A stretch of DNA of 64,000 nt. It comes from Desulfobacteraceae bacterium (GTDB lineage Bacteria; Desulfobacterota; Desulfobacteria; Desulfobacterales; ETH-SRB1). The position numbers and the translations under genes are program-made. The notes under the pieces were generated by a model. It did no database searches and had not been told where the DNA came from. It saw only the letters and a program-made list of their open reading frames with translations. Positions 1-16,598 of this stretch are shown one piece after another; within the stretch, counting starts at the first letter, position 1, and each line of letters begins with the position of its first letter. The stretch is from contig JAUVHU010000002.1 in the NCBI GenBank assembly GCA_030593145.1, positions 8,238-72,237 of the forward strand, given 5' to 3'.

Positions 1-1479
1 TCCGGCAACTGCAAAACATTCTGTTGTTCCTTGCACAGAAGGGGCCGGCTCGCCTGCAGCCTGGCCGGCTGCCAAGAATTCAGCATCCGTGGTAATAGGC
101 GCCTTAGCGTATCTGACATCATAGCTTGAGGCCTGTGTGCCAGGATCGTTACCATCATCACCAGGCGCCGTCCAGGTCAGTTCTATTGAATTTGAATCCA
201 CCATCCCTGTTGTTGCCAGATCGGTTATAACAGCCGGCGGCATAAGATCAGATATCATAATATGAGTGGTGGAAGCATAGTTGCCATAGGCGTATCTTTT
301 AATCTCTGTATGATTATAATTAGCTACATACAAATACTGCTGTCCGGTGAAAGAGGCCACAAAAATACCTAACCTGACACCGTTAGAATTAAATTGATAA
401 TCACCTATGCCTGAACCCGGCCCGCCTACAGTCATCACCCAATTGTTGTTGGAATCAAACTGCTGAATCCGGTGGTTACCACAGTCACTCACCCAGTAAT
501 AACCATTAGTATCAAAAGATATCTGATAGGGCCCGTTTCCACCGTTGAATTCTCCGTCCCCTATTCCTGAAGAGCTGAGAATGGTAGTAAAGCTGGATCC
601 GCCATCAGTGGATTTATATACCCTGGTAGCCCCCACATCTGCTACAAGAATAGTGTTGCTGTCTGAAGGATCAATGGCAATGCCTGAAAGTTGGACGGCG
701 CCTGGTGGTGTCGTGCCGCTATTCCAACTGGATCCAGAGTTGGTAGATTTATAAACCTTGTTTGTACCCTGATCCACACCGTAGAGTATGGTTCCATCAC
801 TATTACAAGCTATATCATAGGGTTGGGAGCTCATCATTCCCCACCCCAGGGAATAATTACTCCAGTTAATGCCGCCATCTGTTGAATAGTAAAGCCTCTT
901 GGCTCCGTTATCCATGACATAGATCTTCTGTCCGTCATTACTTATGGCGATCCCATAAGCAGGGCCGCTGCCTCCGTAAATTACCTGAGACCAACTGAAA
1001 CCACTATCAGTCGATTTGTAAAGTTTGTTATCCGATGAGGTCATCCAGAGATTCTGGCTGTCGGAAGGGTCAACAACCAGGTCATAAGGAGAAGATCCTG
1101 TAGTAGAAGCACCTGCATATGATATGTCGTCGATATAATAGGGATAGGTGCCGTCTGGTACAATGTCACTGATGTCATCCGTTCCATCCCATACTTCTGA
1201 ATTGCTGCCGCTGATTCTATTCTCAGTATAGTTGTCGGAAGGCACTACAAGGTTACGCTTCAGAATGCCGGATGCATTATGGATCCTCAACCAGAGTATG
1301 GTTGAGGTGTTCAAGTCATATGAAATGGCGGTATTCTCTATATCGAGGTTAAAGGGGTTAGGGTTTGCTGACACATTGGAGACATTGGCTGCTTCCCCTT
1401 TTAAGGTCATACCGAAGATAAAAAAGAAGCAAATGAGAACACCTACTGTAACCTTACATGAATCACAATAATTTTTCAT
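1..1479 (-). CDS. Secreted multidomain surface protein, cut by the window edge: FlgD-Ig-like N-domain, BNR/Asp-box propeller repeats, NHL-like repeats, Fn3-like module
   Basis: Absent from the ORF track because it has no stop inside the window. My own minus-strand translation from the ATG at 1479-1477 gives MKNYCDSCKVTVGVLICFFFIFGMTLKGEAANV... It stays open to position 1 (493 codons). Asp-box motifs read directly: YKSTDSGFSW, YYSTDGGINW, YKSTNSGSSW, YKSTDGGSSF. Later come GNHRIQQFD (NHL-like) and ELTWTAPGDDGNDPGTQASSYDVRY (Fn3-like). Confidence 0.75.
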   Translation of the reverse strand, partial: MKNYCDSCKVTVGVLICFFFIFGMTLKGEAANVSNVSANPNPFNLDIENTAISYDLNTSTILWLRIHNASGILKRNLVVPSDNYTENRISGSNSEVWDGTDDISDIVPDGTYPYYIDDISYAGASTTGSSPYDLVVDPSDSQNLWMTSSDNKLYKSTDSGFSWSQVIYGGSGPAYGIAISNDGQKIYVMDNGAKRLYYSTDGGINWSNYSLGWGMMSSQPYDIACNSDGTILYGVDQGTNKVYKSTNSGSSWNSGTTPPGAVQLSGIAIDPSDSNTILVADVGATRVYKSTDGGSSFTTILSSSGIGDGEFNGGNGPYQISFDTNGYYWVSDCGNHRIQQFDSNNNWVMTVGGPGSGIGDYQFNSNGVRLGIFVASFTGQQYLYVANYNHTEIKRYAYGNYASTTHIMISDLMPPAVITDLATTGMVDSNSIELTWTAPGDDGNDPGTQASSYDVRYAKAPITTDAEFLAAGQAAGEPAPSVQGTTECFAVAG

Positions 1480-1558
1480 GGTCTCACCTTTGTTCCTCAT
1501 AATCACTTTTTCATTACCAATTCATTTTATTTTTTCAAACCACAAAAGCCATGCTTTG

Positions 1559-2635
1559 TCATTGCTTTGACGTATGGCAGACAACACAGCCGGTCATATT
1601 TGCCTTGTTATTCCAGCGCATCAGCTTGTAATTGGCTGTAGCATGAGCACCATGGCAAGAAAGGCACATGATAATATCTGTTCCTGAGGCTACAACGGCG
1701 TTTGGATCAGCAGTGTTTATTGTGCCATAGACTGTTGATCTGGCAACTGGAGCCACTATACTGTAAGTTGTGTAGGCCGTATATTCGCCAGAATTTGTTA
1801 AAACAATATCTGTCGGGTGTCTGAGCCATGGCGAAGCAGCATCACTGGTTATATCATCTAAGCCCGGCCCATGAAAGTTCCCGTGACATTCAGCACATAA
1901 ACCGCTTATAGTATTTCCGCCAGCAGTTGTCTTGTCACTTTCAGTGCCTTTGCTGGAAGCACCATAATATTCATTGTGGATGGTGGAGTCTTTATTTTGC
2001 CATGGATAGGTGGCATCCATATTTTCATGACCCTTTACGCCTTTTAAGAATCGGTAGCTGTTGGCCACTGTATCAGCAGTATCACAAAGCCCACTCACCC
2101 CATCATGATGGGCACCTTTAATACTATCGAAATTGCCCGCTGTACCGCGGTCACCATGGCAGCCTTTTGTCCCGGCACAGGTTAAGTCTGTTGTAATCCC
2201 TGTACTGTTTTCATCACCTGGAGGCCCGGAGGTTAAAACACCTTCTGCATTACCAAGAAAGTCTACATTATGACCATAGGTATCGTCGGTTGTAATATGT
2301 TTAAAATTGCCGGCTGCCAAGTCTGTGCCGCCAGTGGCGTGATAGACCTGAGGGATTTTTTGGGTGCCCAGTGTCACGTATTCCGAACCATCAGAAGCCT
2401 GACCATGACAGCCCAGACAGTTGCCACGTACCAAGCTCGAGAAAGGAGCATCACCAAACCCTCCATATGTCGCCATTGAAGCCCCACCCTGACTGTTGTG
2501 CATAGTGTGACAGTTTGAGCACATTCCTGTCACCTTCGCATGAGGAGCATTTGATGCGGCTATGATCAAAAGGATCAATATTATGCTGAAAGACAACCTT
2601 TTCAAAACAGCTCCCTTTATTCCAGTACCAGGCAA
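1559..2635 (-). CDS. Secreted multihaem c-type cytochrome with 5 canonical CXXCH motifs plus one C-X5-CH candidate
   Basis: 358-aa ORF with a signal peptide (...LLIIAASNAPHA/KV). CXXCH motifs counted by eye: CSNCH, CLGCH, CAECH, CLSCH, CVVCH, plus CAGTKGCH. Many spare His residues. The sequence between haem sites is Gly/Thr/Ser-rich. Confidence 0.85.
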   Translation of the reverse strand: MPGTGIKGAVLKRLSFSIILILLIIAASNAPHAKVTGMCSNCHTMHNSQGGASMATYGGFGDAPFSSLVRGNCLGCHGQASDGSEYVTLGTQKIPQVYHATGGTDLAAGNFKHITTDDTYGHNVDFLGNAEGVLTSGPPGDENSTGITTDLTCAGTKGCHGDRGTAGNFDSIKGAHHDGVSGLCDTADTVANSYRFLKGVKGHENMDATYPWQNKDSTIHNEYYGASSKGTESDKTTAGGNTISGLCAECHGNFHGPGLDDITSDAASPWLRHPTDIVLTNSGEYTAYTTYSIVAPVARSTVYGTINTADPNAVVASGTDIIMCLSCHGAHATANYKLMRWNNKANMTGCVVCHTSKQ

Positions 2636-2683
2636 TGGTTCACGGTTGTCGGTTCACGGTTTTTTCAATGAACTATGCAACCG

Positions 2684-3613
2684 TTAACGGTTACCAATTT
2701 CAAAGACACTAATGCGTGTATTGGCCCGGTCAACGATAAATATCCGGCCTGAACTGTTTATATGGATAAAAGAAGGCCGGTGCAGTCGTCCTTCTCTCCA
2801 GCCGAGTTGTGAAAAAGCATATAGAAACCGGCCTTTATTGTTGAAGACAAGAACCTTATTTTTGTGCTGATCCATTACATAGATCAGCCCTTTTCGATCC
2901 ATAGCAAGGCTTGTTGGGAAATCGAATTCATCCTTACCGGTACCTCTGGTTCCAAACTTTAAAAGAAGATTTCCCTCTCTGTTATAAACGCAAATCGAAC
3001 CATCAATGGCGCTTAGCGCATAGATACGGCCCTGTGCATCAACCTTCACATCCATGAGGCCATGGCTTCCTTTGACAGGAATTTGTCTCTCAAATTGCAA
3101 ATTTGAATCAAAGACAATAATCCGCTTATTAGCTTTATCCACAATATACAAACGATCTTCTGAATCAATAGCCATATTCCCAGGATAAAACGGATTAGCC
3201 CCGGAAACAGTAGAAAGATCGATCGGTTTGACAGATTTTTTCCCGATATCGATAGCCAGGATTTGTCCCTTTACGGGTTCGGCCACAAAAAATCTACCCC
3301 TGCTGTCTTTGACTATGCTTGTCGGTAATGTCAGAGCGCCTCCGCCGGTGAATTCCGAGATATATTTAAACTTATCATTAAAATCAAATGCAAGAATTCT
3401 GCCATTTGTTGTGTCTGTGGAATATAACCTCTTTTTGTTTTCGTCAAAAAAGAGACCGCCAAGCAGGCCAAAATGGCCTATCTCGCTATTCCCGGTGATT
3501 GATGTCAGGTATTTAACCGGTTCTTTTGACGAACAAAATGCGGTTGCAGACATAATTAAAGTCAGGATTAAAACCGGAATAGCAAAATTGATCTTTCTAT
3601 GCACAATTACCAC
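2684..3613 (-). CDS. NHL-repeat six-bladed beta-propeller protein, probable lipoprotein
   Basis: 309-aa ORF with a signal peptide ending ...MSATAF-C-SS. Six blades spaced about 45 aa apart: GRILAFD, GQILAID, KRIIVFD, GSICVYN, NKVLVFN, TRISVFE. Confidence 0.8.
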   Translation of the reverse strand: MVIVHRKINFAIPVLILTLIMSATAFCSSKEPVKYLTSITGNSEIGHFGLLGGLFFDENKKRLYSTDTTNGRILAFDFNDKFKYISEFTGGGALTLPTSIVKDSRGRFFVAEPVKGQILAIDIGKKSVKPIDLSTVSGANPFYPGNMAIDSEDRLYIVDKANKRIIVFDSNLQFERQIPVKGSHGLMDVKVDAQGRIYALSAIDGSICVYNREGNLLLKFGTRGTGKDEFDFPTSLAMDRKGLIYVMDQHKNKVLVFNNKGRFLYAFSQLGWREGRLHRPSFIHINSSGRIFIVDRANTRISVFEIGNR

Positions 3614-3643
3614 CTTACCCCGGACAAACCGGAATTGAATATA

Positions 3644-3930: not shown

Positions 3931-5187
3931 TCAGTACCCCTTATGACATTGAATACACAACTGCTTTTTTCGATCAAATCTCAAAGCAAAACTATAAGGG
4001 CTTCCCATCAGGTTATGACAGGTACTGCAGCGAATCTCCCCCTTGGACCTCGGATCAATAGTGCCTTTTCCAACAGGATGGGTGAACGTAGCATGTCTTT
4101 TGTGGCAATTAACACACGCGGAAATTTCATCAGTCCTGCACAATAGCTCAAAGTTGGATCCGTGGGGACGATGGCAGTCAGTGCATTTTCCTTTCATAAC
4201 CAAGGGGTGCTTGTATTTGTTATTTTTGTCTTTTAAGCGCTCTTTTGTATCCTGATGACAGGCAGTGCATATTTTTTTCTCTTTTGCCTTCTTCAGGTGA
4301 GGCTCATCCGAAGCATGCGGACTGTGGCAGTCGGTGCAAAAAACGCCTTCTCCCACATGGGTGTTGATCTTTCTGAAGTCCTCTTTAACCCCTGGATGGC
4401 AGGTAATGCAAATCGATATTCCCTTGTTTTTTATGCTCAGCGGATCTGTTGATCCGGCCGGCTTATGGCATTGAGTGCATTTCTTACCGGAAAACGGCTT
4501 GTGTGAGTTTTCCTTGATCAGCTTGCCGCGATTTGATCCGTGGGGATTGTGGCAGGAAATGCAATTGGTATCCTGCACAGGATAATTAAGGTGAGCTTTT
4601 TTCGCTTTTTTGTTATTAATCGAATGACATTTGACGCATATCTGTTTAGGACTCTTTTCGACCAGCTCCTCATAATCGGACGTATGGTGGCTGTGGCAAC
4701 TTAAACAATTACCTTTCTTGGCAGGATCGTGCTTGTTCTTTTTTGAAAACATCTCTTTGCCGGCATGGCAGCTAAAGCAGAGTTGTTCCCCTCTTGCCGT
4801 TAATAGTTTGGGATTTTTTGACGAATGAGGGTTATGACACTTCAGGCACGCTCCTTCTTCAAAAGGAGGATGGCTGTATTTTTTGTCAAAGCTCCCTTTT
4901 TTGCCTTTATGGCAGCTTTTGCACAACACGCTGATTTCATCTTTTATTAGATGTTCGTAATTTGAGGTATGGGGATTGTGGCAGCTTGAACATTGATATT
5001 TTTTAAAAGGCTCGTGTTTCCTCTTTTGAGCCATTTCCTGTTGAATCCCGGGATGACATTCCATGCATTTTTTAAAGCCGACATCCATGCCTTTTGCATC
5101 AGTCACAGGAGCAACCATCATGGATAACAGGAATACCACGAAAAATATCAAATAAAACAAGAATGTGTGATTTTTAACTTTAGGCAT
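3931..5187 (-). CDS. 16-haem c-type cytochrome built from doubled-CXXCH repeat units, secreted
   Basis: 418-aa ORF with signal peptide ...MMVAPVTDA/KG. I counted 16 CXXCH motifs by eye. They recur in a roughly 50-aa unit: CxxCH, about 20 aa containing H-x-P, CxxCH-x-PH-x-S, about 15 aa. Confidence 0.9.
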   Translation of the reverse strand: MPKVKNHTFLFYLIFFVVFLLSMMVAPVTDAKGMDVGFKKCMECHPGIQQEMAQKRKHEPFKKYQCSSCHNPHTSNYEHLIKDEISVLCKSCHKGKKGSFDKKYSHPPFEEGACLKCHNPHSSKNPKLLTARGEQLCFSCHAGKEMFSKKNKHDPAKKGNCLSCHSHHTSDYEELVEKSPKQICVKCHSINNKKAKKAHLNYPVQDTNCISCHNPHGSNRGKLIKENSHKPFSGKKCTQCHKPAGSTDPLSIKNKGISICITCHPGVKEDFRKINTHVGEGVFCTDCHSPHASDEPHLKKAKEKKICTACHQDTKERLKDKNNKYKHPLVMKGKCTDCHRPHGSNFELLCRTDEISACVNCHKRHATFTHPVGKGTIDPRSKGEIRCSTCHNLMGSPYSFALRFDRKKQLCIQCHKGY

Positions 5188-5205
5188 TTTAGCTCACTGT
5201 TACAA

Positions 5206-7155
5206 CTAATGACATTTTTTACAGTTGCCGTCCTTAAACAGAGGATGCATTATTTTATGTATCAAAGCTTCGTTTTCCGAGCTGTGCGTTTCATGACAGC
5301 CTATACAATTTGTGCCGGCGACAGGAATTGCGCTGTGAGCATCCATCATAGCCGGAGCATTGAGGCTGTGACAACCTTTGCAAAGGCTCGCCCCTTTACC
5401 TGCAAGTAAGTTTTCAATGTTTGCATAGTGCGGCACATGGCACTTCAAACACATCTCTTCCTTTGCCGGCGTATGCTGAAATTTATCCTTTTCAATATGA
5501 AGCGCCAGATCAGAGTGACATGACAGGCAGAGTCTCCCTGCAAGTCTGTTTAATCGTCCTTTTATTTTACTCCCGTGGGGATTATGACAGAATGTGCATT
5601 CTCCCTCTTTAATCGGCATGTGGGTGTATTTGCTTTTTTGGGAAAGAGCCTGAATGTCTCCGTGACACCCATAACAATTATCCGCTCCTATTTTAATCAA
5701 CTGAAAATCGTTGTCGCCGGCATGTTCATCGTGGCATGTAAGACATCGGCCCTTTGCAAAAGATTCATGAACACTTCCCCCCTTCACCTCATCAAGCATC
5801 CCCTTATGGCAATTAAAGCAGAGTTTGTTTTTTTTCTGGATCAAAAGCTTTTCCCTGCTTGCAGAGTGGGGGCTATGGCAGACAACACATTGTCCGATCC
5901 TGATAGGAGTGTGAACATTAACGCGATCAAAGAGTATCTTCTCTTTTTGATGGCAGCTATAACACTGCTCAACTTCGGCGCGCTGGAGTTCAAACTTGTT
6001 ATTTGATGCATGGGGTTCGTGACAAACAACACAATCTCCTTTCTTAACAGGATTGTGAACATTTGACCGCGTAAAATCGTCTCTCTTATGACACTGGTAA
6101 CAAAGCTTTTTGCCGGCCTCTTTCAATCCATAATCGTTGTTTGATGCATGGGGATTATGACAGGATGTACAATTGTTCTCTCCTGCCGGCTTATGAACAT
6201 GTTGTTTCTTAATTAACTTTTCTTTTTCTTTATGGCACGAATAGCAAAGCTTTCCATCAGGCAGAAGCGTTGCATATTTGTTGTCAGTGGCATGTGGACT
6301 GTGGCATGACAGGCAATTTCCATCCTGAACCGGTGAATGGATATGAGCTTTCTTAAAATCCGCCTTGTCTTTTGCATGGCAACCATAGCAAAGCTTTGCG
6401 CCCTTCTCCCTCGGTTCTAAAGCCTGCGCCGATTCAGGTGGGTTATGGCATGCGCTGCACTCCTTTTTGTCAAGGGGTTTATGAATAAATTCGCGCAGCA
6501 ACTTGGGGTTTGAAGAGGAATGTGATGTATGACACGACACACAATTGCTATTGTTCACCTTATAGCCCGAGTGGCTTTTGACAAACCCGGAACCTTTGAA
6601 ATTATGACATTTGGCACATACATCGTTCGTCGTGTTAAATAGCTGTTGTTCATAATCAGAACCATGGGCATCATGACATGTCAGGCAACCCTTGTCGGAT
6701 AATGGCTCATGTTGTGTTTTTCTTGTATAAGAGTCTTTTGAATGGCAAACAAAACAAAGATTATTTCCCTTGCCTTTTAACAGGTTTTTATTTTCGGACG
6801 AATGTGGATTGTGACAACTTATACAGTTTTTTTCTTTTACAGGAGCATGAACATGCTTTTTGTCAAGCACGCTTTTCATCTCTTTATGACAGATGTAACA
6901 CAGCTCCTTTTCGCTCACCTTTAAGTAAACGCCCCCGATCATCCCGTGGGGTCTGTGACACGATTCACACTCGTTGCTTTTTACAGGCTTATGGACAATC
7001 CCTGCCTTCTTAAACTCATCAACCTTTTTTTGATGGCACTCAACGCATTTTTTTCTTACAATCTGCCCTGGCGCTTTTCTCTTGCAGGAAACAATCCCCA
7101 CGATGATAATTGCAATCAATAACAGCAATATAGTAGCTGGTTTTATAAATTTCAT
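5206..7155 (-). CDS. 26-haem c-type cytochrome, probable lipoprotein, same doubled-CXXCH repeat architecture
   Basis: 649-aa ORF. The N-terminus MKFIKPATILLLLIAIIIVGIVS-C-KRK has a lipobox-like IVSC. I counted 26 CXXCH motifs by eye, making 13 repeat units. It lies 18 bp upstream of the 16-haem gene and 3 bp downstream of the SurA-like gene. Confidence 0.9.
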   Translation of the reverse strand: MKFIKPATILLLLIAIIIVGIVSCKRKAPGQIVRKKCVECHQKKVDEFKKAGIVHKPVKSNECESCHRPHGMIGGVYLKVSEKELCYICHKEMKSVLDKKHVHAPVKEKNCISCHNPHSSENKNLLKGKGNNLCFVCHSKDSYTRKTQHEPLSDKGCLTCHDAHGSDYEQQLFNTTNDVCAKCHNFKGSGFVKSHSGYKVNNSNCVSCHTSHSSSNPKLLREFIHKPLDKKECSACHNPPESAQALEPREKGAKLCYGCHAKDKADFKKAHIHSPVQDGNCLSCHSPHATDNKYATLLPDGKLCYSCHKEKEKLIKKQHVHKPAGENNCTSCHNPHASNNDYGLKEAGKKLCYQCHKRDDFTRSNVHNPVKKGDCVVCHEPHASNNKFELQRAEVEQCYSCHQKEKILFDRVNVHTPIRIGQCVVCHSPHSASREKLLIQKKNKLCFNCHKGMLDEVKGGSVHESFAKGRCLTCHDEHAGDNDFQLIKIGADNCYGCHGDIQALSQKSKYTHMPIKEGECTFCHNPHGSKIKGRLNRLAGRLCLSCHSDLALHIEKDKFQHTPAKEEMCLKCHVPHYANIENLLAGKGASLCKGCHSLNAPAMMDAHSAIPVAGTNCIGCHETHSSENEALIHKIMHPLFKDGNCKKCH

Positions 7156-7158: not shown

Positions 7159-8577
7159 TTAATTGTTCCGGTATTTTTCTTCTATCTGTCGCAAAACTTT
7201 TTTGTTAATCTTTATTCTGGAACTTTTACGCAATTTTGCCAAATACTTGGAAAGCACTTTGTTGAAGTTGTTTTGGCCCACGATTTTTTTTAATGTATTG
7301 ACAAGACTGGAGAACTCTATGGGTTCCCCTCCTCTTTTGCCCTTTAATTTAATGATCTTGTATTGTCTGCCATCAGCGATTACCCCGCTGATCTCACCTG
7401 GTTTCAGCCGGTTTAATTCCTTCCTGATTGCAGGAGAAAAGAAATCAGCATTAACCCATACAATCTTTTGCCTTGGCTTCCATTTTTCCGACACCCGAGA
7501 TCCCAAAAACTCAAAACTCGCGCCATACTTTAATTCTTTAAGGGCTTTCTCAGCATCTTTACGAACATTAAAGATCATCTCCCTGAACCAGACTTCATAA
7601 CTTTTCTTGAAATTATTTATATGTTTTTCATAATATTGTGTCAACTCATTTTCTGTTGGAATTGATAGGGGATAGATTAGCTTTGCCTTAAATTCATTGA
7701 TAAGAAGCCGATCTTTACGTTTTTTAACCATATCCATAAATGCAGGCTCGTTGACATAATTTCGCTTTAACGCCTCCTGGTCGATCAATTTGAATAAAAT
7801 CAGTTTGTCTAAAATTTTCTCTTTTAACTCTGGTTGCATTTTTTCCGGATATCCATTGTTTTTCAACAAAAGAGATGTCCCTGGCTGATATTGAGCTGCA
7901 TATTTCATATCATGAAGAAAACTATCGAGGGAAATCATATCACCATTTACGCCCGCCACCACCAACTTTTTTCCTGAGTAATTCTTTCCAGGGTCAAGCA
8001 GGTTAATCAGGTCCTGATCAATCCATATATCCGCCTGTTTTCTTAGCTCGGAAATAAAGTTGTCAGACAGTTCTTTCTCTTTTTTCTTCTTGAGGTTTTT
8101 TCTGATTCGCGCTTCTACCTTTTTAAACATTCCTTCAGAAGCCGGTTCATCTTTCTCATAGTGCTCTTTGAAATAGTCCAAAACATCTTGATCGCTGATG
8201 TTGATTTTATCAAAGACTACTTCTTTTCTTAATCTGATGACAGACCGAGTAATCACGAAAGATTCAATCTTTTTTGTAAAATCAGCAGACCTGTCAAGTT
8301 CCACCCTGTACGCGTCCTGAATCATGAGCCGCTCATCAATCATCTCTTCAACAATATTCAGAATCTCTATGCCGCCCGCGCCTTCTTCAGACCGAATTTG
8401 CAGCTTATTCCTGTGAATAGCCTTAATCCTCTCCTGAAGAGCGCCTTCATCAACAATGTCACCATTGATTTCCGCGAGAACGGTTGTATCCGCAGCCGCA
8501 GAATAGGGTGTATATATATTTGCGGCTGCAAGCCAAAAAAGTGTCATCAAAGTAAATACTGATAATTTTCTCATCAT
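7159..8577 (-). CDS. Periplasmic SurA-like chaperone / PpiC-type (parvulin) peptidyl-prolyl isomerase domain protein
   Basis: 472-aa ORF with signal peptide ...YTPYSAAA/DT. The N-terminus is SurA-like (VLAEINGDIVDEGALQERI). The C-terminal region is parvulin-like (EVWFREMIFNVRKDAEKALKELKYGASFEFLG...GEISGVI...YKIIKL). The usual catalytic His context looks degenerate. Confidence 0.7.
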   Translation of the reverse strand: MMRKLSVFTLMTLFWLAAANIYTPYSAAADTTVLAEINGDIVDEGALQERIKAIHRNKLQIRSEEGAGGIEILNIVEEMIDERLMIQDAYRVELDRSADFTKKIESFVITRSVIRLRKEVVFDKINISDQDVLDYFKEHYEKDEPASEGMFKKVEARIRKNLKKKKEKELSDNFISELRKQADIWIDQDLINLLDPGKNYSGKKLVVAGVNGDMISLDSFLHDMKYAAQYQPGTSLLLKNNGYPEKMQPELKEKILDKLILFKLIDQEALKRNYVNEPAFMDMVKKRKDRLLINEFKAKLIYPLSIPTENELTQYYEKHINNFKKSYEVWFREMIFNVRKDAEKALKELKYGASFEFLGSRVSEKWKPRQKIVWVNADFFSPAIRKELNRLKPGEISGVIADGRQYKIIKLKGKRGGEPIEFSSLVNTLKKIVGQNNFNKVLSKYLAKLRKSSRIKINKKVLRQIEEKYRNN

Positions 8578-8602: not shown

Positions 8603-9223
8603 TTAGGGTATCGTCTCAATCATCTCCAAAACCATTTTCCTGGTCAATTCGCCCACCGACCTGACCTTGCCGAAATCAAGAACCTTTATGTAGTCGTCAC
8701 CGGTTCTTCTGTATTGCGCCATCCACAAAATCTTTCCTGTTCGGGCGTCCACCATCCTCGAACTGATGGAAACCACGGGAATAACGCTCCTTTTCTTTTT
8801 CTCTATCCCTATAAATTCTTCTACCCGACCTATAATAACGGCATCCACTCCCAATCTTTTTCCCGCAAGCTTGATAGTATTGAGATCAATGCCGGTTCTC
8901 ACGATAATTCGCTCGCTAACAAGAAAACTCTTGATGTTACCTGAAAATTCCACCTTAAATTTTCTCGTTTTAATCAGGTTTGCGATAAATGCCCCTGTTA
9001 CAATTTTGCTTGCTCCGGTAATTTTTGTATTGTTGTAAAAAGACAAAACCGCAACCTTTTTGACTGCCGGCTGATCATGGTTTTTTCTGACATAGGTGTA
9101 CGGAGTACCGGATGAAGAACAACCGGAAATGAATCCCAAAATAACAAGCAAAAAAATAAACCTTCTTGTCCGCTCAGCCTTTGAGACCTTTGCAATGTGA
9201 AAACCAATTTTTTGCGAGTCCAT
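8603..9223 (-). CDS. Lipoprotein with CsgG/LpoB/TolB-N-like alpha/beta domain (paralogue 1 of 3)
   Basis: ORF 8603..9271. I prefer the ATG at 9223, which is 4 nt after the upstream stop. Lipobox LGFISG-C-SSS. Motifs KKVAVLSFYNNT, AGKRLGVDAVIIGRVEEF and ARTGKILW...RRTGDD are shared with the next two genes. Confidence 0.6.
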   Translation of the reverse strand: MDSQKIGFHIAKVSKAERTRRFIFLLVILGFISGCSSSGTPYTYVRKNHDQPAVKKVAVLSFYNNTKITGASKIVTGAFIANLIKTRKFKVEFSGNIKSFLVSERIIVRTGIDLNTIKLAGKRLGVDAVIIGRVEEFIGIEKKKRSVIPVVSISSRMVDARTGKILWMAQYRRTGDDYIKVLDFGKVRSVGELTRKMVLEMIETIP

Positions 9224-9227
9224 CAAC

Positions 9228-10754
9228 TCAAAAATCCTCAACCCATTCATGCTTTTTTTTCTCAGGCTCAATCTCAGTTACTTCGAGTTCAAGTGGTTTT
9301 AAGGGTTGTTTTTCTATTTGCAGCCTGTTTCCCGCTATATCTCTTATTTCAAGTGAATAGACAAACATATTCGCTTTTTCCGGGCTCAGGTCTTTTTTTG
9401 TTTTTTTTATTGGGCAGACAATGGTTGCCGGAATATTCCCTTTGCCCTCAAACCTTCCTGCTTCAGTGCCTGTTCTGTCGTAAACAATAACTTCCCAATC
9501 GGCTATTTCGCTTATATCTTTGATTTCCAGCGACAGGGTAAGGCTTTCTTCATTTTCCCCGGCAAGAACAACGAAAGTCTCAGGCGGAGTTTTGTCAACA
9601 ATGATCTTCTCCTTTACTGTAGATGTCCTGTTGCCCGCCTTATCTTCCACAAACAATCTACAGAAATATGTTCCATCTTTAACAGTTTTGTATTTATTAT
9701 TATCACCCTTCCAGATAAAACCTGCGGGCAGCACGCCAAAACCGTCTTCAGACCTCACAATGTTGCCGGCTTTATCTGTAATCTCAACCTGCCAGCTTTC
9801 TAACGTGACTGCTTTCAGAAGTTCAGGAAAGAATTGAATATAGTCATTTATGCCGTCATTATTAGGAGATACAAGCCTGTGCGGAAACGAAAGAGCGATT
9901 TCCGGCCAGCTGTTGTGAACAGTCAGACTGGCTGCGGAGTCCATACTAAAAAGCCTGTCCAATTGGTCCAATACGTAAATCTTCAGCGGATAGACTCCAT
10001 CAATGGCAGGAGCTGAAATAGTTCCGGCATACCATATTCCATCCTCGGTTTTAAGATCAATCTCACTATCAAGAACAAATGCCTTGATATCAAGCAACCT
10101 TCCGGTGATCTCTTTAACCTCTATTAAGAGACGTGTTGTCTCACCGCCTCTTAACACATCAGGAAAAAAACCTGCGTGTGTGATCTCAATAGGAGTTACG
10201 GATGAGCCGGCTGAATTGACAATAGAGGGCAAGTTGCTTAAGAGTTCCTCCACCGTGATGCCTACCAACTTCTTCAAAGAAGTTATCCTGCCCAGGCCGA
10301 GAAATGTGGCAAAGTCGTCCCCTGTGCGTGAAATAGAGTTAGCCCAAACAACAGAACCATCAAAACAATTTATCATCTGGGCATTTATGGCTACCTGTGG
10401 ATTTTCACCATCTTCAAAGAGATCAACTGATCCGAGCAGCAGGACATCCGTCTCTAAAACAGCTCCCATTTCTCTGATAACCGATCTGTCTAAGAATTCC
10501 GTTCCGCGGATTCTTCTTTTGGCAAGGAAATTTTCCAGGATATCCTGAGAAACAACCTTGAATTCATTCTTTATGAGAGAATCCGATATAAGACTCGTTA
10601 CATTAATGGAAATATCTCCGGCGGTAAATATGCCAAAAGGTATCACTGCTGTTCTCTTTATTGTTACCACATCCTCCGCCCACAAAATGCGGCCTGACAA
10701 CCCTGAAAGCAAAAAGGCTAAAATAACTGATAGGATAAATAAATATTTTTTCAC
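9228..10754 (-). CDS. Secreted protein: CsgG/LpoB-like N-domain (paralogue 2) plus FlgD-Ig-like / Ig-like domains
   Basis: 508-aa ORF with a signal peptide. The N-domain carries RTAVIPFGIF...VLETDVLLLGSVDLF...GSVVW...SRTGDD. The middle has SPNNDGINDYIQF...WQVEITDKAGNIV...DGTYFCRLFVEDKAGN, a FlgD-Ig-type signature. Confidence 0.6.
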   Translation of the reverse strand: MKKYLFILSVILAFLLSGLSGRILWAEDVVTIKRTAVIPFGIFTAGDISINVTSLISDSLIKNEFKVVSQDILENFLAKRRIRGTEFLDRSVIREMGAVLETDVLLLGSVDLFEDGENPQVAINAQMINCFDGSVVWANSISRTGDDFATFLGLGRITSLKKLVGITVEELLSNLPSIVNSAGSSVTPIEITHAGFFPDVLRGGETTRLLIEVKEITGRLLDIKAFVLDSEIDLKTEDGIWYAGTISAPAIDGVYPLKIYVLDQLDRLFSMDSAASLTVHNSWPEIALSFPHRLVSPNNDGINDYIQFFPELLKAVTLESWQVEITDKAGNIVRSEDGFGVLPAGFIWKGDNNKYKTVKDGTYFCRLFVEDKAGNRTSTVKEKIIVDKTPPETFVVLAGENEESLTLSLEIKDISEIADWEVIVYDRTGTEAGRFEGKGNIPATIVCPIKKTKKDLSPEKANMFVYSLEIRDIAGNRLQIEKQPLKPLELEVTEIEPEKKKHEWVEDF

Positions 10755-10770: not shown

Positions 10771-11367
10771 CTATCCCCCAAACAAGGTATCAAACATCTC
10801 TTCAATCAACTCCCTGCAAAGATCGCTGGAGCTCTTTTTGCCGATGCCGAAGAGCCGATCCAGAATGGTTGCTCCCTTTACGTTGTGTGTCGCTTCCCAG
10901 AGGATCTTATAAGATTTTACATCTATCAGCTTTAAAGTAATGGAGACTTCCGGATAAGCGCTGCTCCCTGCACGCGATACACCATATTCTTCAACCGCTC
11001 CTACAATAAAGGCCTGGACGTTCAGCCGTTTTCCGGCCCTTTCAGCAATACTTTTGCTGATGACACCTTCTTTTTTCTTAGCCCCTTCTTCCCTCAATAC
11101 CTTATCCACCTCTCCGAATTCAACAACATCAAATACACCCCGCCTTAACACCTCAGCAGCCACGACATTCATTACCTTGCCTTCCGCTTCATTTTCCTTA
11201 GTCAGGTTTTTTAGAGGCACAATAGCTACTGTCTTAATATATGTAAGATCTGCCGTAGGGTGGATATAACTCATAGGACCAGCGCAACTGTAAAATAGCG
11301 ACAATACCGCAAGTAAAAATACGGTTTGCTTGATACAACTTATATTATTCATCTGTTTTCCATTCAT
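10771..11367 (-). CDS. Probable lipoprotein with CsgG/LpoB-like domain (paralogue 3)
   Basis: 198-aa ORF with signal ...AVLSLFYS-C-AGP. Motifs: IKTVAIVPLKNLT, AGKRLNVQAFIVGAVEEY, SYKILW. It aligns clearly with 8603..9223. Confidence 0.6.
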   Translation of the reverse strand: MNGKQMNNISCIKQTVFLLAVLSLFYSCAGPMSYIHPTADLTYIKTVAIVPLKNLTKENEAEGKVMNVVAAEVLRRGVFDVVEFGEVDKVLREEGAKKKEGVISKSIAERAGKRLNVQAFIVGAVEEYGVSRAGSSAYPEVSITLKLIDVKSYKILWEATHNVKGATILDRLFGIGKKSSSDLCRELIEEMFDTLFGG

Positions 11368-11444: not shown

Positions 11445-13583
11445 TTAAAACCTTGCTGAAAGATTCGTGGTAAAAGTCTGTGTTTTCGTTATCGGATCTG
11501 CCTCCTGGCAGGTCCAATTATAACCGAATCTTAAGGTAAAAATCCGGCTCAAATTCCAGTAAAGGTCAGAAGAATAAGTTGAGCTGATAGTACCATTTCT
11601 GTTCAAGATATACCCCATGTCAAGCCGCATCTTTTCGGTCATCAACCAGTTCATGTTATACTGCTGCTGAGTGGTTTCCTCTCCTGTCTGCTCATCCCTG
11701 TCAATGCCGTAAGACGCTCTGAAGTAAAAATAATGAGACGGCCGCCAGTTAAATATAGTCTTGGCATTGGAAGTTTGACCAGTTGTACCACCGCTTGAAT
11801 TTTGTGTTTCTGTCCAATTTCTACCATATTCAATTTCAGCTGTCAACATTCTGGTAAGCTCCAGACGTAGATTTGAGTTAATAGACTTAGTGGTTGTCTC
11901 GGATTGACTGACAGGATTTTCCAAACGGGTGATATTTACATCCACATCCAGATCCGCCCCTTCACGAAGCTTTGCCGCCACCTGAAACAGAGCGGATGAG
12001 TTCTTTGAGTGGGTTTCGCCGTCTTCTTTTGATACCGTATAATTCAACAAAAGGTCGGTGTTAAGGGCTTTGAGGGGAGATGAAAGAAAGTGCAGCAGAT
12101 AAGTATCGGTTGTCTTATCCTTTGTCTCTGTCTCAGAATCATATTTATACTCCTGGCGTCTGCGATACTCCGGCCGGATTTTGAGATACTTATGAGCTTT
12201 AAACTCTTTTCCAATGCGACCGGATATATCATGGCTTGACCGCTTGGTTTTGGTTGAGTCGGCACCCGTCTCCTCACTCTCCTGCTCGTCCTGCGTAAAA
12301 TCATACGTAAAAGAGAGCCAATCCGTGGGCTTATATCTAAGATTGGCCTGGGTTGTTTGGGTTGTTTGTTCGGTATCAGTGGTGGTAAAGGCGGCCTGGG
12401 TCGTAGATCCGTAGGCCTCGATCTCTGTGACAAAGAGATCATTATCATCATTATCATCATTGACTACCTTAAAATATGTGGCCGGTGGTGCGGTAAACGA
12501 GATCTCAAACCGCTTCTGATTTGTGTCATAGTCGAAACTGGCTCCAGAGGTTATCAGCGTCCATGTAGCGTTATCAGTACTTGAATACACATCCCATACA
12601 AAGTTGTTCTTGTCGAAGTTGATGTTGGGTGATTCCGTATAAAGATATATTTTGTCAATTTCAGTGGAAAAAGTGAGGTCCAGCCCAATGTTCTGGTTGG
12701 TGTTTCCACTTCCTCCAATGTTGATCTCCGTGGGCGTGGTAACGCGCGTCGCTTTGTTGCCATCCTTGAGAGCATCATAAGTATCATCAAGAGTTCCTGA
12801 CAGTGGGGCAGAATCATGAGCATAAAGTCCGGTATACACTGTCTTTTTTTCGGCAACCTCGACATCCTGCCCCCCTGTTGTGGTTTCCGTCTTTCTGTTT
12901 GTGATCGAATAGGTTCCCGAAGTTACAATCTTGTTTTTCCAGAACGACTTTCTGAAATCGACTCTTCCTTCATTGGTATTGGTCTCCGTTGTGGATTCTG
13001 TAACATAATTATCCGAAACATTGTTTTTATAATCGTAGTTAAAATTCAAAAAACGGAAGGCATAATCAGCACTTCCGGAAAAATTAGTGGTTTTGGTATT
13101 TGTCTCGCGTACTGCCAGGTGGTCATAGTTCATGTCTTCGTTGTAACGGAGTCGCACTTTGGGATATTTTTCGGACTTTGTGGATAAATTGACGTTCCAC
13201 GATTCGGTCGTCAAGCGATCTTCGTCTGAAACCATGGTCAGGATATCGAGACCTTTTTCAGTAATCCGATAGCCTGTATCAGCAGAAAAATATTCATTTC
13301 TTAGATTAAGCCTTATATCCGGAGTCAACCGCGTTGTTTTAGTATCGTTTGTCTCGTTTACATTAATTCCAAGATTAGCGGCAAAGTTGACTTTAGGAGT
13401 AAATTCCTTGGTCGCCCGAATATTATAGTTCTGCGTAAAACCCCAGGAATTTTTTTCTTCTTCACCGGTCTTTGTTTTGGTCGAACAATAAGTAAGGTTG
13501 GCCGAACCACTGATATCATCTCCGGCGTAGACTCCCCGGAAGCAGATCAGAGTCAGCAAAAAAATAGCAATCCAATATTTCAT
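11445..13583 (-). CDS. Large outer-membrane beta-barrel protein with an inserted discoidin (F5/8 type C)-like module
   Basis: 712-aa ORF with signal peptide ...FRGVYA/GDD. Long runs alternate polar and aromatic residues, are rich in T/N/Y, and show strand-like periodicity. The C-terminus ...TTNLSARF ends in Phe, which is OMP beta-signal-like. Residues about 255-392 (NNFVWDVYSSTDNATWTLI...YFKVVN...FVTEIEAYG) resemble a galactose-binding/discoidin fold. Confidence 0.65.
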   Translation of the reverse strand: MKYWIAIFLLTLICFRGVYAGDDISGSANLTYCSTKTKTGEEEKNSWGFTQNYNIRATKEFTPKVNFAANLGINVNETNDTKTTRLTPDIRLNLRNEYFSADTGYRITEKGLDILTMVSDEDRLTTESWNVNLSTKSEKYPKVRLRYNEDMNYDHLAVRETNTKTTNFSGSADYAFRFLNFNYDYKNNVSDNYVTESTTETNTNEGRVDFRKSFWKNKIVTSGTYSITNRKTETTTGGQDVEVAEKKTVYTGLYAHDSAPLSGTLDDTYDALKDGNKATRVTTPTEINIGGSGNTNQNIGLDLTFSTEIDKIYLYTESPNINFDKNNFVWDVYSSTDNATWTLITSGASFDYDTNQKRFEISFTAPPATYFKVVNDDNDDNDLFVTEIEAYGSTTQAAFTTTDTEQTTQTTQANLRYKPTDWLSFTYDFTQDEQESEETGADSTKTKRSSHDISGRIGKEFKAHKYLKIRPEYRRRQEYKYDSETETKDKTTDTYLLHFLSSPLKALNTDLLLNYTVSKEDGETHSKNSSALFQVAAKLREGADLDVDVNITRLENPVSQSETTTKSINSNLRLELTRMLTAEIEYGRNWTETQNSSGGTTGQTSNAKTIFNWRPSHYFYFRASYGIDRDEQTGEETTQQQYNMNWLMTEKMRLDMGYILNRNGTISSTYSSDLYWNLSRIFTLRFGYNWTCQEADPITKTQTFTTNLSARF

Positions 13584-13768
13584 AGATTCGTTAATTCGTT
13601 AATTAGTGGTTTGTCTCAATTGACCAATTCATCCAAATCTAATCCCTAAATCCCATTTGGATTGATGATTTATGTCCCGCTTGGACGGGATTTATTCTGT
13701 CTTTTCAATCAACAATCCTTGCTCCGACATCTGATCCCTGACATCTGACATCCAACCTCTGCTCTCAG

Positions 13769-15211
13769 TCACTCCTCAATCATCGCAATCCCATGCGGCC
13801 CTCTCCCTACCTGAATGGCCGTTTTCAGTCGTCTTGTTGTAAGATCAATAACAGATAGATCCTCTGACAGGGTATTAACCACGTAAAGTTTTCTTCTCAA
13901 CGACTCGACAACCATCTGTGAAGGAAGGTCCCCAACCGATATGTTTCCGGTAGTCATATCCATAGAGGTATATATGAAGGAAACTTCATTGCCGGTGTTA
14001 GACACGTAAATCCGGCCTGACAAGCCAGACACAAGCCACATGGGCTTTTGACTCAGAAGTATCGTTTTTGTAACCGAATAAGACGGGATGTCTATCACAG
14101 AAATACTGTTTGAACCTACATTAATCACATATAGCTTATCCTGGTGAATGGCCATGCCGGTGGGATTAAAACCGACTGTTACAGTATCTTCCACAGCACT
14201 GGTATTCACGTCGATGATCGATACGGAATTTGACGCTTTGTTTGCCACATAGACCTTGCGTCTGTATTGATCGAACACAATGCCGGCAGGATTCTTCCCC
14301 ACAGATATAAAATCGGTTGCCGTATTTGAAAGAGTATCTATCACGGAGATATTGTCTGAATCCGGGTTGGTTGCGTAAAGTGTCAAGCCATCCCCGGACA
14401 AGGCGAGTTCAGCAGGACTATATCCAAAATTGGCGATTGTGTTGATTACCCTGTTTAAATCGGTATCGATAACCGAAATATTGCCGGTGTCGAAATTGGC
14501 TACATATATCTTATCCCCATCCGGGCTTACCACAATTCCCATAGGCGATTGATCTACCGCAATAGTTGCTACCACCCTATCCTGCTGCCTGTCTATAACG
14601 GTAACGCAATTAGAGCCCATATTCGTAACATAGAGTAAAATATTTTTAATCTCTATACTCTGTTTCCGCATGATCATCTTTGGCCTGAAAAGATATTTAT
14701 CAAAAACAGACTCTTCCGGATTCCAGTCCGCAAAAAAAGCAAAACTCTCCCCGGAAAATACAGAAAACTCCATATCAAAAAAATGGTTTCCCCCGGGCTG
14801 GGGAAGAACCAGGCTGAAGATTTTTCCATACTTTTCCAGTTTTGCCTCAGAAATTGTCCACCTTATCCGTTCATACTTTCCGGCAGGCAGATGAAGCTCA
14901 CACAATTTGATCTGACTCTGAGCGAACCCGAAAGAATGAATGCACTTATCCACCGCCACATCGATCCACTTTCCCTCCTTGTTCATAAAGCTCATGCCGG
15001 AGATAGAAAAGGAGATATCAAATGTAGGTTTTTGTGAACAGGAAAGATAGAAGAAGACCTGGCCCTTATTGGTTAATTGGAGCTCCTTGGAGGTAGGTTC
15101 AAAAATACATGCTGCAATAGAAACTAAGGCCAGCACAACTATTATCAAACGAAAAACCAGGAATTTTGCCGCAATTCTTTTCCTCATGATGTCCTCATTT
15201 CTTTTTTTCAA
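13769..15211 (-). CDS. Lipoprotein with N-terminal beta-sandwich-like domain and YVTN-family beta-propeller repeats
   Basis: 480-aa ORF with lipobox LVSIAA-C-I. Repeats: YVANFDTGNISVID, LYATNPDSDNISVID, VYVANKASNSVSIID, LYVINVGSNSISVID, LYVVNTLSEDLSVID. The start at 15211 overlaps the upstream gene by 17 nt; an alternative ATG is at 15187. Confidence 0.8.
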   Translation of the reverse strand: MKKRNEDIMRKRIAAKFLVFRLIIVVLALVSIAACIFEPTSKELQLTNKGQVFFYLSCSQKPTFDISFSISGMSFMNKEGKWIDVAVDKCIHSFGFAQSQIKLCELHLPAGKYERIRWTISEAKLEKYGKIFSLVLPQPGGNHFFDMEFSVFSGESFAFFADWNPEESVFDKYLFRPKMIMRKQSIEIKNILLYVTNMGSNCVTVIDRQQDRVVATIAVDQSPMGIVVSPDGDKIYVANFDTGNISVIDTDLNRVINTIANFGYSPAELALSGDGLTLYATNPDSDNISVIDTLSNTATDFISVGKNPAGIVFDQYRRKVYVANKASNSVSIIDVNTSAVEDTVTVGFNPTGMAIHQDKLYVINVGSNSISVIDIPSYSVTKTILLSQKPMWLVSGLSGRIYVSNTGNEVSFIYTSMDMTTGNISVGDLPSQMVVESLRRKLYVVNTLSEDLSVIDLTTRRLKTAIQVGRGPHGIAMIEE

Positions 15212-16598
15212 ACATGACTTTTCCGCGATAGATTCCGCATAACCAGCCTGTGCGCCCGGATCCTGTTTTTACAAAATACCATGAAGTTAATTCATCGTGT
15301 TTGTCCTGGCTCAGGATTTCAAACTCTTCGCCTTTTTTCATCAACCGAATGATCCTGCTGCTTGTAGCGCTTTTTTCCCGCAGGTTCATGTTTGCAGTCA
15401 AGATATAATGCTGTGCGGTCACTCGCTCTGATAGTTCTTTTCCGGCGGGAGCTTCCGGCTTTATCTCTTTGACTAATTCTTTTGTGATGATATCTTTTGG
15501 TTTAACTTTTTCAGCCACTGCAACAGACCGAATCACTTCTATTTTAAAGACCTGTATCCTGTTGTTAAAAGTGTCTGCGATCAGCACATTTCCAGAGTCG
15601 TCCGCGGTGATATCGCTTGGATGCTGAAACCAACCTCTGCCCCAGCCTTTGCCGCCAAAATCAAACAAAAAACGTCCGTCTTCTGAATAGGCGTTTGCGG
15701 TATGCCGCATGTAGTCGATTACATAAATCACTTTGTTGTGCTTATCTATAGTCATTCCTCTTGGCCGGCTCAACTTGCTGGATCCCCCGCCTTTCTGGCC
15801 GAACTTAAACAGGAAATTTTCCTTGTCATCATATACGTAAATACGGCCCATGTCTTCACTCAAAAGGTATATCCTGCCGGAGCTGTCTATCTCCACATCG
15901 CATATCGTGGCTTTTTGTTCTTCACCTTTTCCCAGTCTGTCAACAGGACTCATGAGATGGCAAAACGTTCCATCCTCATTCAAAATCACCACGCCATGAA
16001 AGCTGACGCCGGCCACATAGAATTTGCCCGCCTTGCTGATGGCAATATTTGTTGGGTGAAAACTATCCGCGTTTTCAAATCCCTCAAAAAAAAAATTCTT
16101 GCTCCACCTTAATGAAGGATCCAATACCGTTATTCTTGCTCCCTTCTCTTTTAAGCCGGATGACTGAGCAACAAAAAGATGCCCCTCAGGATCAACCGCC
16201 ACGCCTGCAGGAGTTTTGATGCCGTTTGATTTTCCAACACTAAGAAGCGGGTAAAAATCATAAGTATATACCAATATTCTGCTGTGTCCGGAATCCGTAA
16301 TATAGATCTCCTTTTTTACAGAATCGAAGAATAATTTGGATGGATAAGACAGTTTCAGACCATTATAGTCCTCCCTGATAATATAAAGGCAGGTAATCTT
16401 TTTCAGCTTGATTTGATCAGCATAGATAGCCGAATCGGTTTGCTTCGGTAAATCAGTTGACTCGGATTCATGCTGGATGTCGATCTGTTGCCCGGCGACA
16501 GAGCATTGAACAAAGGGCCATAGGCCAGACAAAGAGATGCATATTGCGATAATAATACAAAAACCGACTATCTCTTTTGTGCTGCTGTTACAGGACAT
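15195..16598 (-). CDS. NHL-repeat beta-propeller protein with C-terminal bacterial SH3 domain
   Basis: 467-aa ORF with a hydrophobic N-terminal signal or anchor. NHL blades: HSRILVYTY, GRIYVYDDK, NNRIQVFKI and others. The C-terminus NLREKSATSSRIIRLMKKGEEFEILSQ...WYFVKTGSGRTGWLCGIY is SH3b-like. This is the first gene of the cluster. Confidence 0.8.
   Translation of the reverse strand: MSCNSSTKEIVGFCIIIAICISLSGLWPFVQCSVAGQQIDIQHESESTDLPKQTDSAIYADQIKLKKITCLYIIREDYNGLKLSYPSKLFFDSVKKEIYITDSGHSRILVYTYDFYPLLSVGKSNGIKTPAGVAVDPEGHLFVAQSSGLKEKGARITVLDPSLRWSKNFFFEGFENADSFHPTNIAISKAGKFYVAGVSFHGVVILNEDGTFCHLMSPVDRLGKGEEQKATICDVEIDSSGRIYLLSEDMGRIYVYDDKENFLFKFGQKGGGSSKLSRPRGMTIDKHNKVIYVIDYMRHTANAYSEDGRFLFDFGGKGWGRGWFQHPSDITADDSGNVLIADTFNNRIQVFKIEVIRSVAVAEKVKPKDIITKELVKEIKPEAPAGKELSERVTAQHYILTANMNLREKSATSSRIIRLMKKGEEFEILSQDKHDELTSWYFVKTGSGRTGWLCGIYRGKVMFEKKK

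Follow-up and report, generated by a model that had tools for sequence, protein, structure and literature searches.

Operons that place large multihaem cytochromes next to a putative outer-membrane conduit have been described in several bacterial groups. In SEEP-SRB1 and other Deltaproteobacteria, an operon core of a peptidyl-prolyl isomerase (PPIase), a 26-haem cytochrome, a 16-haem cytochrome and a six-bladed propeller was reported, with no known porin found with the operon (Skennerton 2017; PMC5539420). A conduit named OetABI was later proposed, in which OetA is periplasmic, OetI is the barrel and OetB is a lipoprotein cytochrome, linked to OmcS-like, OmcX and Apc2a cytochromes (Murali 2023; PMC10553843). 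The S5 Table of that paper lists, for Seep-SRB1a, hmlA, hmlB, a PPIase, a hypothetical protein, a gliding-motility C-terminal-domain protein, a DUF799 lipoprotein, omb, a beta-propeller lactonase and an SH3 protein. Geobacter sulfurreducens carries the omcS-companion (osc) operon, GSU2493-GSU2504; PMC13194489, a 2026 paper citing Shen 2025 (Cell Chem Biol 32:239), places omcS at GSU2504, oscC at GSU2501, oscI at GSU2495 and oscJ at GSU2494, and reports from Shen 2025 roles in OmcS nanowires for OscH (folding), OscE, OscF and OscG (secretion) and OscD (morphology). No paper in the literature searched uses both the Oet and osc names. Here we analysed a 64,000-nucleotide stretch from a Desulfobacteraceae bacterium (the window; GCA_030593145.1, contig JAUVHU010000002.1), in which positions 1-16598 hold a cluster of multihaem cytochrome and envelope genes. 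Its sequence identifies it, almost certainly, as an osc/oet cluster, a type conserved in many bacteria, here in a Desulfobacterales version of Seep-SRB1a type, and the cluster is very probably a conserved outer-membrane module for extracellular electron transfer. On balance we favour a role in exporting, anchoring and wiring an OmcS-like filament, with a specific division of labour among the proteins. The gene set and its order are already in print, as are the barrel and the proposal of a conduit. The initial annotation had called the composition unrecognised, which does not stand: the core dates from 2017 (PMC5539420), the gene order is in the S5 Table (PMC10553843) and the Geobacter counterpart is osc.

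Eleven complete open reading frames (ORFs) and a twelfth that is truncated at the edge of the window occupy positions 1-16598, all on the minus strand. From g1 to g12 they are:

g1, 15195..16598 (-), secreted NHL six-bladed propeller with a C-terminal bacterial SH3 domain

g2, 13769..15211 (-), YVTN/YNCE beta-propeller lipoprotein

g3, 11445..13583 (-), 712-aa outer-membrane beta-barrel of ~28-30 strands with a discoidin/galactose-binding-like insert at ~257-400

g4, 10771..11367 (-), 198-aa lipoprotein of the PelC/GNA1162/LpoB fold

g5, 9228..10754 (-), 508-aa secreted paralogue of g4/g6 (residues 1-176) followed by Ig-like/CHU_C-type beta-sandwich domains

g6, 8603..9271 (-), 222-aa third PelC/LpoB-like lipoprotein paralogue

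g7, 7159..8577 (-), periplasmic SurA-like chaperone with a parvulin PPIase domain

g8, 5206..7155 (-), 26-haem lipoprotein cytochrome with 13 paired-CXXCH modules of MtrA/DmsE type

g9, 3931..5187 (-), 16-haem periplasmic cytochrome of the same MtrA/DmsE module type as g8

g10, 2684..3613 (-), NHL six-bladed propeller

g11, 1559..2635 (-), 358-aa OmcS-family hexahaem cytochrome with 5 CXXCH and 1 CX5CH (CAGTKGCH)

g12, 1..1500 (-), partial secreted BNR/Sortilin-type and NHL repeat protein, cut by the window edge

The order given for Seep-SRB1a in the S5 Table corresponds, gene for gene, to g9 back to g1, and loci from metagenome-assembled genomes (MAGs) of that table were among those we retrieved (L009, L012, L013, L016, L023). 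With each GTDB species represented by a single genome, a profile of the 26-haem protein detected relatives in 339; the analysis of loci took in the best 80 of these, and all ORFs of the retrieved loci were searched with the twelve window proteins. Upstream counts refer to 55 loci in which 7.5 kb or more of sequence precedes the 26-haem gene, and downstream counts to 70 loci. The best 80 of the 339 came from Desulfobacterales (including the SEEP-SRB1 MAGs C00003060 and C00003106 and the Seep-SRB1a genomes SM7059A and B60-G16), Nitrospinota, Nitrospirota/Thermodesulfovibrionales, Acidobacteriota, one Spirochaetota MAG, Myxococcales and Geomonas, with Geomonas oryzae and G. azotofigens as cultured hosts. 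The initial annotation had proposed a synteny survey, and the gene order does recur in dozens of distant genomes: propeller, barrel, LpoB-like protein, ~500-aa protein, a variable third gene, PPIase, ~650-aa cytochrome, ~410-aa cytochrome and NHL protein. This order, from propeller to NHL gene, is kept in Desulfobacterales, Nitrospirota, Nitrospinota, Acidobacteriota and Geomonas, and was also found on contigs whose barrels are 27-33% identical to g3. A g2-like propeller lies directly upstream of the barrel in 35/55 loci, Geomonas included; the barrel is present in 42/55 (several more carry it rearranged downstream), a g4-like gene in 44/55, a g5- or g6-like gene in 45/55 and the PPIase in 46/55. 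Downstream of the 26-haem gene, the 16-haem gene was found in 58/70 loci and the NHL gene after it in 50/70. The published core block of PPIase, 26-haem, 16-haem and NHL genes, in that order, is g7-g10 in the window and recurs in the related loci. A g1-like gene upstream of g2 was less widespread (14 of the 55 long loci).

In the window as in Geomonas, LpoB/DUF799-type lipoprotein genes separate the barrel from the PPIase, and the barrel is preceded by a YVTN propeller. The Geomonas oryzae cluster is flanked by OmcS homologues (E=5e-118 and 2e-104 against PDB 6ef8), and since these are true OmcS genes the Geomonas block is taken to be the Geobacter osc cluster. The equivalence with osc rests on position and on Geomonas as sister genus (Geobacteraceae), G. 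sulfurreducens not being among the best 80 of the 339 loci. Arithmetic from the osc letters to the GSU numbers, together with the Geomonas order, equates OscD-OscK with g2-g10. By position, g2 would correspond to OscD, g3 to OscE, g4 to OscF, g5 and g6 together to OscG, g7 to OscH and g10 to OscK, while g8 and g9 appear to be OscI and OscJ. In the other nomenclature, g3 appears to be OetI ('omb'), g8 HmlB and g9 HmlA; g8 is assigned to OetB because of its lipoprotein signal and g9 to OetA because its signal peptide lacks a lipobox, both by inference. From their sequences g7 and g10 are assigned to the four core genes of Skennerton, g10 being the fourth, and g1 is the 'SH3 domain-containing protein' or 'NHL repeat protein' of the S5 Table (PMC10553843).

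Two insertions were seen among the related loci. An extra ORF of ~410 aa, weakly like the 16-haem protein, lies between the g5/g6-like genes and the PPIase in a series of Desulfobacterales loci (L008, L009, L017-L020, L024, L025, L033-L035); it is labelled 'cyt c' in the S5 Table (PMC10553843) and is absent from the window cluster. In a locus that is otherwise syntenic, a PhdYeFM antitoxin / PIN toxin pair (L004:7933-8596) separates OmcS-like cytochrome genes from the YVTN propeller.

The domain list of the initial annotation agreed with Pfam almost item by item, and its count by eye of 47-48 haem motifs was close to the computed total of 47 CXXCH and one CX5CH (26 + 16 + 5, with the variant in g11). 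No multihaem ORF was found elsewhere in the 64 kb. The twelve genes are real and on the same strand, as had been stated, but g12 is without counterpart in relatives, no homologue being found in 82 related loci, and it is therefore treated as a neighbour and not as a cluster member. Pfam matches to g12 were Sortilin-Vps10 (2e-9) and NHL (1e-7), with no confirmation of the Fn3 domain that had been called. The gaps from g1 to g12 measure, in order, -17, 185, 77, 16, -44, 25, 3, 18, 317, 48 and 58 bp. Six of the eleven overlap or are at most 25 bp, which bears out only in part the earlier statement that most gaps are 3-25 bp or overlaps; the two longest gaps lie at 13584-13768 (185 bp, g2/g3) and 3614-3930 (317 bp, g9/g10). 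Internal promoters could lie in both. The equivalent of the 317-bp gap between the 16-haem and NHL genes is only ~29 bp in a related locus (L001). Promoter-like sites were above shuffled sequence in number (54 compared to 37.0 ± 6.3) and terminators were not (17 compared to 15.7 ± 3.9); the scan gave no usable site within either the 185-bp or the 317-bp gap, the ORF listing gave no convincing small ORF in the 317-bp gap, and no Rfam family was found in 1-17500. The upstream limit of the cluster is a divergent M16 peptidase gene (17468-20593, +).

The penultimate gene, g11, had been listed as a mere 5(+1)-haem cytochrome, which missed its OmcS-family nature. A single-sequence phmmer search of g11 against the PDB returned nothing relevant, and only the family profile reached OmcS: the g11 family profile matched an OmcS-like profile in hhalign (99.9%, E=1e-35) and OmcS itself (PDB 6ef8; E=1.9e-24), with CsnCHTMHNS aligned to CEGCHTMHNS of OmcS. 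Within the g11 family, residues C39, C42, H43, T44, H46, N47 and S48 do not vary, and they align to C9..H16 of OmcS. In the OmcS filament, His16, the second His of CxxCHTMH, ligates a haem of the neighbouring subunit. Together these matches make g11 a candidate filament subunit. An OmcS-family ORF was detected in 29/44 long loci.

Three genes between the barrel and the chaperone encode related lipoproteins or secreted proteins. The first, g4, has Pfam matches to LpoB (2e-9) and GNA1162-like (1e-5), and its lipobox Cys28 is invariant in the family. Its AlphaFold2 model has a predicted local distance difference test (pLDDT) score of 86, and the top 19 Foldseek matches were all PelC (5t0z, 5t11 and 9h80 among them; best E=1.6e-9, TMt 0.59-0.84), including PelC dodecamer entries (5t10/5t11) and the PelBC complex (9h80). 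GNA1162, LpoB, the TolB N-domain and CsgG (TM 0.35-0.45 for CsgG) ranked below PelC. The g6 protein is 30% identical to g4 (E=6e-23), has the lipobox ISGC and matches LpoB/GNA1162 only weakly in Pfam. The N-terminus of g5 matches g6 (BLASTP E=5e-15) and g5 matches g4 (E=4e-4), with CHU_C (3e-9) and Big_3_2 domains also found in g5. These similarities indicate that g4-g6 are true paralogues. The trio had earlier been called CsgG/LpoB-like; by Pfam they are LpoB/GNA1162/CsgG-like paralogues, but g4 models best as PelC, with CsgG lower. A CsgG-type channel was considered for g4-g6 and rejected, as the Pfam CsgG match is below cut-off, the model has no membrane hairpin and the fold match is at TM 0.35-0.45.

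The resemblance to PelC raises the question of whether the locus consists of two unrelated neighbouring modules, in which g1-g7, with the lectin-bearing barrel and a PelC-like ring, would export or anchor a non-cytochrome polymer (e.g., a polysaccharide) and the cytochromes would act separately in periplasmic redox reactions. The fold of g4 is closest to PelC, one homologue is annotated PelC by the Joint Genome Institute (JGI), the insert of the barrel is of a discoidin/galactose-binding-like, sugar-binding type, and the 317-bp and 185-bp gaps could split transcription. The order from barrel to NHL gene is, however, kept together with the cytochromes in Desulfobacterales, Nitrospirota, Nitrospinota, Acidobacteriota and Geobacteraceae. 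Neither the cluster nor its surroundings contain a glycosyltransferase, Pel or polymerase gene, and the gap between g7 and g8 is only 3 bp, the larger gaps lying elsewhere. Because of the linkage across phyla and the 3-bp g7/g8 gap, we regard two unrelated modules as highly improbable.

No Pfam or NCBIfam model matched g3 itself. Its homologues number 135 in a large protein collection, several of them with PF00754/PF22633 (discoidin) or PF13505 (OMP_b-brl) matches. The AlphaFold2 model of g3 (106 sequences; mean pLDDT 88.9) is nearly all beta, with ~12 long strands before residue 257 and ~17 after residue 400, very short turns and a beta-sandwich insert between them, so that the earlier description of a 712-aa barrel with a discoidin-like insert was borne out. 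The protein ends in ...ARF, and F712 is nearly invariant across the barrel family; a C-terminal Phe is the usual signature of substrates of the beta-barrel assembly machinery (BAM). Foldseek against the PDB returned mainly 22-strand TonB-dependent receptors at TM ~0.2, and the top TM-scores were for MtrB (6r2q_B; 0.38/0.41, 8% identity), a 30-strand S-layer barrel (8agd) and LptD. From this result g3 is therefore predicted to be a very large barrel without a close solved relative, MtrB being the nearest shape to the model only and not a homologue. The g3 family aligned with the Geomonas, Acidobacteriota and Nitrospirota barrels over 670 columns, insert included (hhalign 100%, E=1e-71), and the Geomonas insert has a weak galactose-binding-domain match. 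The lectin-like insert is thus shared between phyla.

Modules of MtrA/DmsE type make up the two large cytochromes. The 26 CXXCH motifs of g8 are covered by Paired_CXXCH_1 in 13 stretches (4e-140), its lipobox is IVSC, and it scores 267 bits against TIGR03508 (DmsE family; cut-off 192) and E=1e-16 against PDB 6r2q chain A of the Mtr complex, which we take to be the decahaem MtrA. (The PDB table labels 6r2q chain A 'Cystathionine beta-synthase', apparently a mislabelling in the original entry.) The initial annotation saw no decahaem MtrA/C-like protein; this is true of the haem count only, the score of g8 being above the cut-off of the DmsE/MtrA model. In g9 the 16 CXXCH motifs form eight paired units (Paired_CXXCH_1, 2e-82), the signal peptide is an ordinary one and the TIGR03508 score is 185 bits, just under the same cut-off. 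Motif number is well kept among homologues, with 26 motifs in 66/78 of the 26-haem proteins and 16 in 60/72 of the 16-haem proteins; a lipobox-like motif was found in 52/78 and 4/72, respectively. In several Acidobacteriota the two cytochromes are fused, with 42 CXXCH counted in 5-6 homologues. Fusion ORFs of 1050-1204 aa stand at the anchor position in seven loci from Acidobacteriota and related genomes (L049, L063, L067, L073, L077, L078, L081), several of which have the barrel downstream rather than upstream. From the fusions it is argued that the two cytochromes act as one wire.

A rival reading is a pure porin-cytochrome conduit (OetABI), in which the barrel would be a sheath, the MtrA-like 16-haem protein would thread it from the periplasm, the 26-haem lipoprotein would lie on the surface, electrons would cross the outer membrane along this fixed chain of haems, and the chaperone, propellers and PelC-like lipoproteins would serve only assembly or stabilisation. 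The module family of g8 and g9, the highest TM-score of the barrel model being to MtrB, the lipobox on g8 and its lack on g9 in the window and in most homologues, the 42-haem fusions and the co-occurrence of barrel and cytochromes across phyla all fit such a conduit, and the model is in print (PMC10553843), with a 2026 mBio paper already using it as an established kind of conduit. The view of the initial annotation, an outer-membrane electron-transfer module analogous to porin-cytochrome systems, accords with this hypothesis and with the same MtrA/DmsE and MtrB matches. A sheath does not, however, need the PelC-like trio and the dedicated SurA-like PPIase that are conserved with the barrel, and OscEFG are reported, from genetic work in Geobacter, to act in OmcS secretion (PMC13194489). 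In addition, the barrel has no MtrB/PioB-family signal and, at ~28-30 strands, is wider than MtrB, and OmcS-family genes are linked to the cluster. A conduit of this kind and nothing more is the main rival of the reading that we favour, although we rate it as rather unlikely.

The chaperone and the propellers complete the set. The g7 protein has Rotamase_2 (4e-12) and SurA_N_2 matches in Pfam, with a PPIC rotamase domain, and resembles the SurA-like chaperone PEB4/Cbf2 (PDB 3rfw, E=9e-6). Expression of another cytochrome nanowire, OmcZ, requires a prolyl isomerase. The g2 propeller matches YNCE (Pfam, 9e-13) and the YVTN repeat (TIGR02276, 6e-64) and has the lipobox IAAC. The two NHL propellers g1 (NHL 1.6e-20, SH3_3 5e-9) and g10 (NHL 4e-15, DUF5128) are paralogues with 32% identity (E=8e-36).

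We favour a role in exporting and assembling a filament over a static conduit alone, because g11 is of the OmcS family, the PelC-like trio is present and the reported Geobacter genetics points the same way. Sec would carry the cytochromes into the periplasm, where they would receive their haems and where the SurA-like PPIase (g7) may keep the OmcS-like subunit (g11) assembly-competent. The 28-30-strand barrel (g3) would serve as the export and anchoring pore for a folded haem protein, its periplasmic face capped by rings of the PelC-like lipoproteins (g4-g6) as PelC caps PelB. The propellers (g2, possibly g1 and g10) could act on the shape or attachment of the filament. The 26-haem protein, anchored in the outer membrane, and the soluble 16-haem protein would form MtrA-type haem rods that pass electrons between carriers in the periplasm and the filament base. 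Electron flow in a sulfate reducer would likely be inward, with a partner cell or mineral as the donor. For OscH, OscEFG and OscD the functions are those that PMC13194489 relates from genetic work in Geobacter, and they would carry over to the window by analogy; the relay through g8 and g9 and the ring of PelC-like proteins we infer.

Several observations weigh against this filament station. The barrel model has a predicted TM-score (pTM) of only 0.62, and the MtrA-like g8 and g9 together with the MtrB match fit a cytochrome-in-barrel sheath equally well. In 15 of the 44 long loci, an OmcS-family gene is missing within 10 kb. PMC13194489 stresses that neither anode growth nor Fe(III) oxide reduction depends on OmcS filaments, the physiological need for which is disputed, and the expression of homologues was low or unchanged in metal respiration (PMC5539420). 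A single apparatus could also do both jobs: a lectin-bearing barrel with a hetero-oligomeric PelC-like ring would export folded, haem-loaded cytochromes, and an OmcS-like filament rooted in the pore would be fed by 42 MtrA-type haems spanning the periplasm. This combination is speculative and we consider it unlikely; if true, it would be a distinct type of protein export and would bring the conduit (Oet) and assembly (osc) views of these genes together.

Outside the cluster the window holds ordinary chromosomal housekeeping genes, and a mobile-element or viral origin was rejected on that ground. Among these genes, a 1242-aa pyruvate-carboxylase-type protein at 25571-29299 (-), with biotin carboxylase, PYC_OADA and biotinyl domains, carries a C-terminal zinc-ribbon domain (residues 1215-1239) that looks like an unusual appendage. 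Two neighbouring genes for T2SSE-family ATPases (PilT/PilU-like) lie at 46375-47544 (-) and 47561-48643 (-), ~30 kb away from the cytochrome genes; a link between type IV pilus machinery and the display of cytochrome filaments has been discussed. The gene at 51377-52513 (+), which adjoins anaerobic ribonucleotide reductase genes, codes for a haem-binding uptake protein of ChaN/Tiki type (Cofac_haem_bdg, E=3e-59).

The cluster is the leading candidate for electron uptake by the sulfate-reducing partners of methane-oxidising archaea, and the corresponding Geobacter genes are reported to serve in building OmcS nanowires (PMC13194489). To what is published the present analysis makes modest additions: the equivalence of OetI, OetB and OetA with OscE, OscI and OscJ, for whose barrel conflicting roles have been proposed; the PelC-like trio; the OmcS-family g11; the lectin-like barrel across phyla; and the fusions of 26- and 16-haem proteins. 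The barrel and g6 families are still without a curated model in Pfam or NCBIfam. The putative PelC-like ring and the 42-haem fusions offer handles for choosing between an export pore and a cytochrome sheath.

Compared to MtrCAB of Shewanella (6R2Q), the window has in common a large outer-membrane barrel beside multihaem proteins of MtrA/DmsE type, one of them a lipoprotein. In place of 10 haems the window cytochromes have 26 and 16, and the barrel is without MtrB_PioB sequence signal, has more strands and carries the lectin-like insert. MtrCAB has none of the PelC-like lipoproteins, chaperone, propellers or OmcS-like gene of the window. No four-domain surface decahaem protein of MtrC/OmcA type was found among the cluster proteins, which gave matches at domain level only: Mtrc-MtrF_II-IV_dom (3e-17) and TIGR03507 (68 bits, cut-off 209).

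With PelBC (5T0Z, 5T11, 9H80) the window shares a PelC-fold lipoprotein encoded beside an outer-membrane barrel. PelC forms a ring under the PelB barrel. The window barrel is much larger (~28-30 strands compared to 16 in PelB), three diverged paralogues stand in place of one PelC, the ring is putative and the presumed cargo is a folded haem protein and not a polysaccharide. No TPR or Pel domain and no pel synthesis gene was found in the cluster by Pfam. The relation to CsgG is a distant one of fold, by way of the periplasmic alpha/beta domain of g4 (Pfam E=0.004, 16.9 bits, cut-off 20.8). The transmembrane hairpin of CsgG builds a 36-strand pore, whereas g4 has only 198 residues and a model without such a hairpin, and no csgE/F/A-like genes are present.

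The OetABI cluster, described as a direct interspecies electron transfer (DIET) cluster, is the same cluster as that of the window from g9 to g1. The OmcX genes that are frequent beside Seep-SRB cassettes are absent from the in-window part of the cluster, and the 26-haem protein of the window is at most 82% identical to that of any GTDB species representative, so the window comes from another species than the representatives compared. The osc cluster of Geobacter shares with the window, as shown through Geomonas, the order of propeller, barrel, LpoB/PelC-like, PPIase, 26-haem, 16-haem, NHL and OmcS-family genes. It differs in that the window has three PelC-like paralogues (198, 508 and 222 aa) where Geomonas has one protein of 197 aa and one of 365 aa, and in that the OmcS-like gene of the window is downstream and shorter (358 aa), with CX5CH at the third haem site. 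The window also adds the NHL and SH3 gene upstream and the BNR/NHL gene downstream. Finally, the host is a Desulfobacterales of sulfate-reducer type, and electron flow through the cluster is therefore probably inward.

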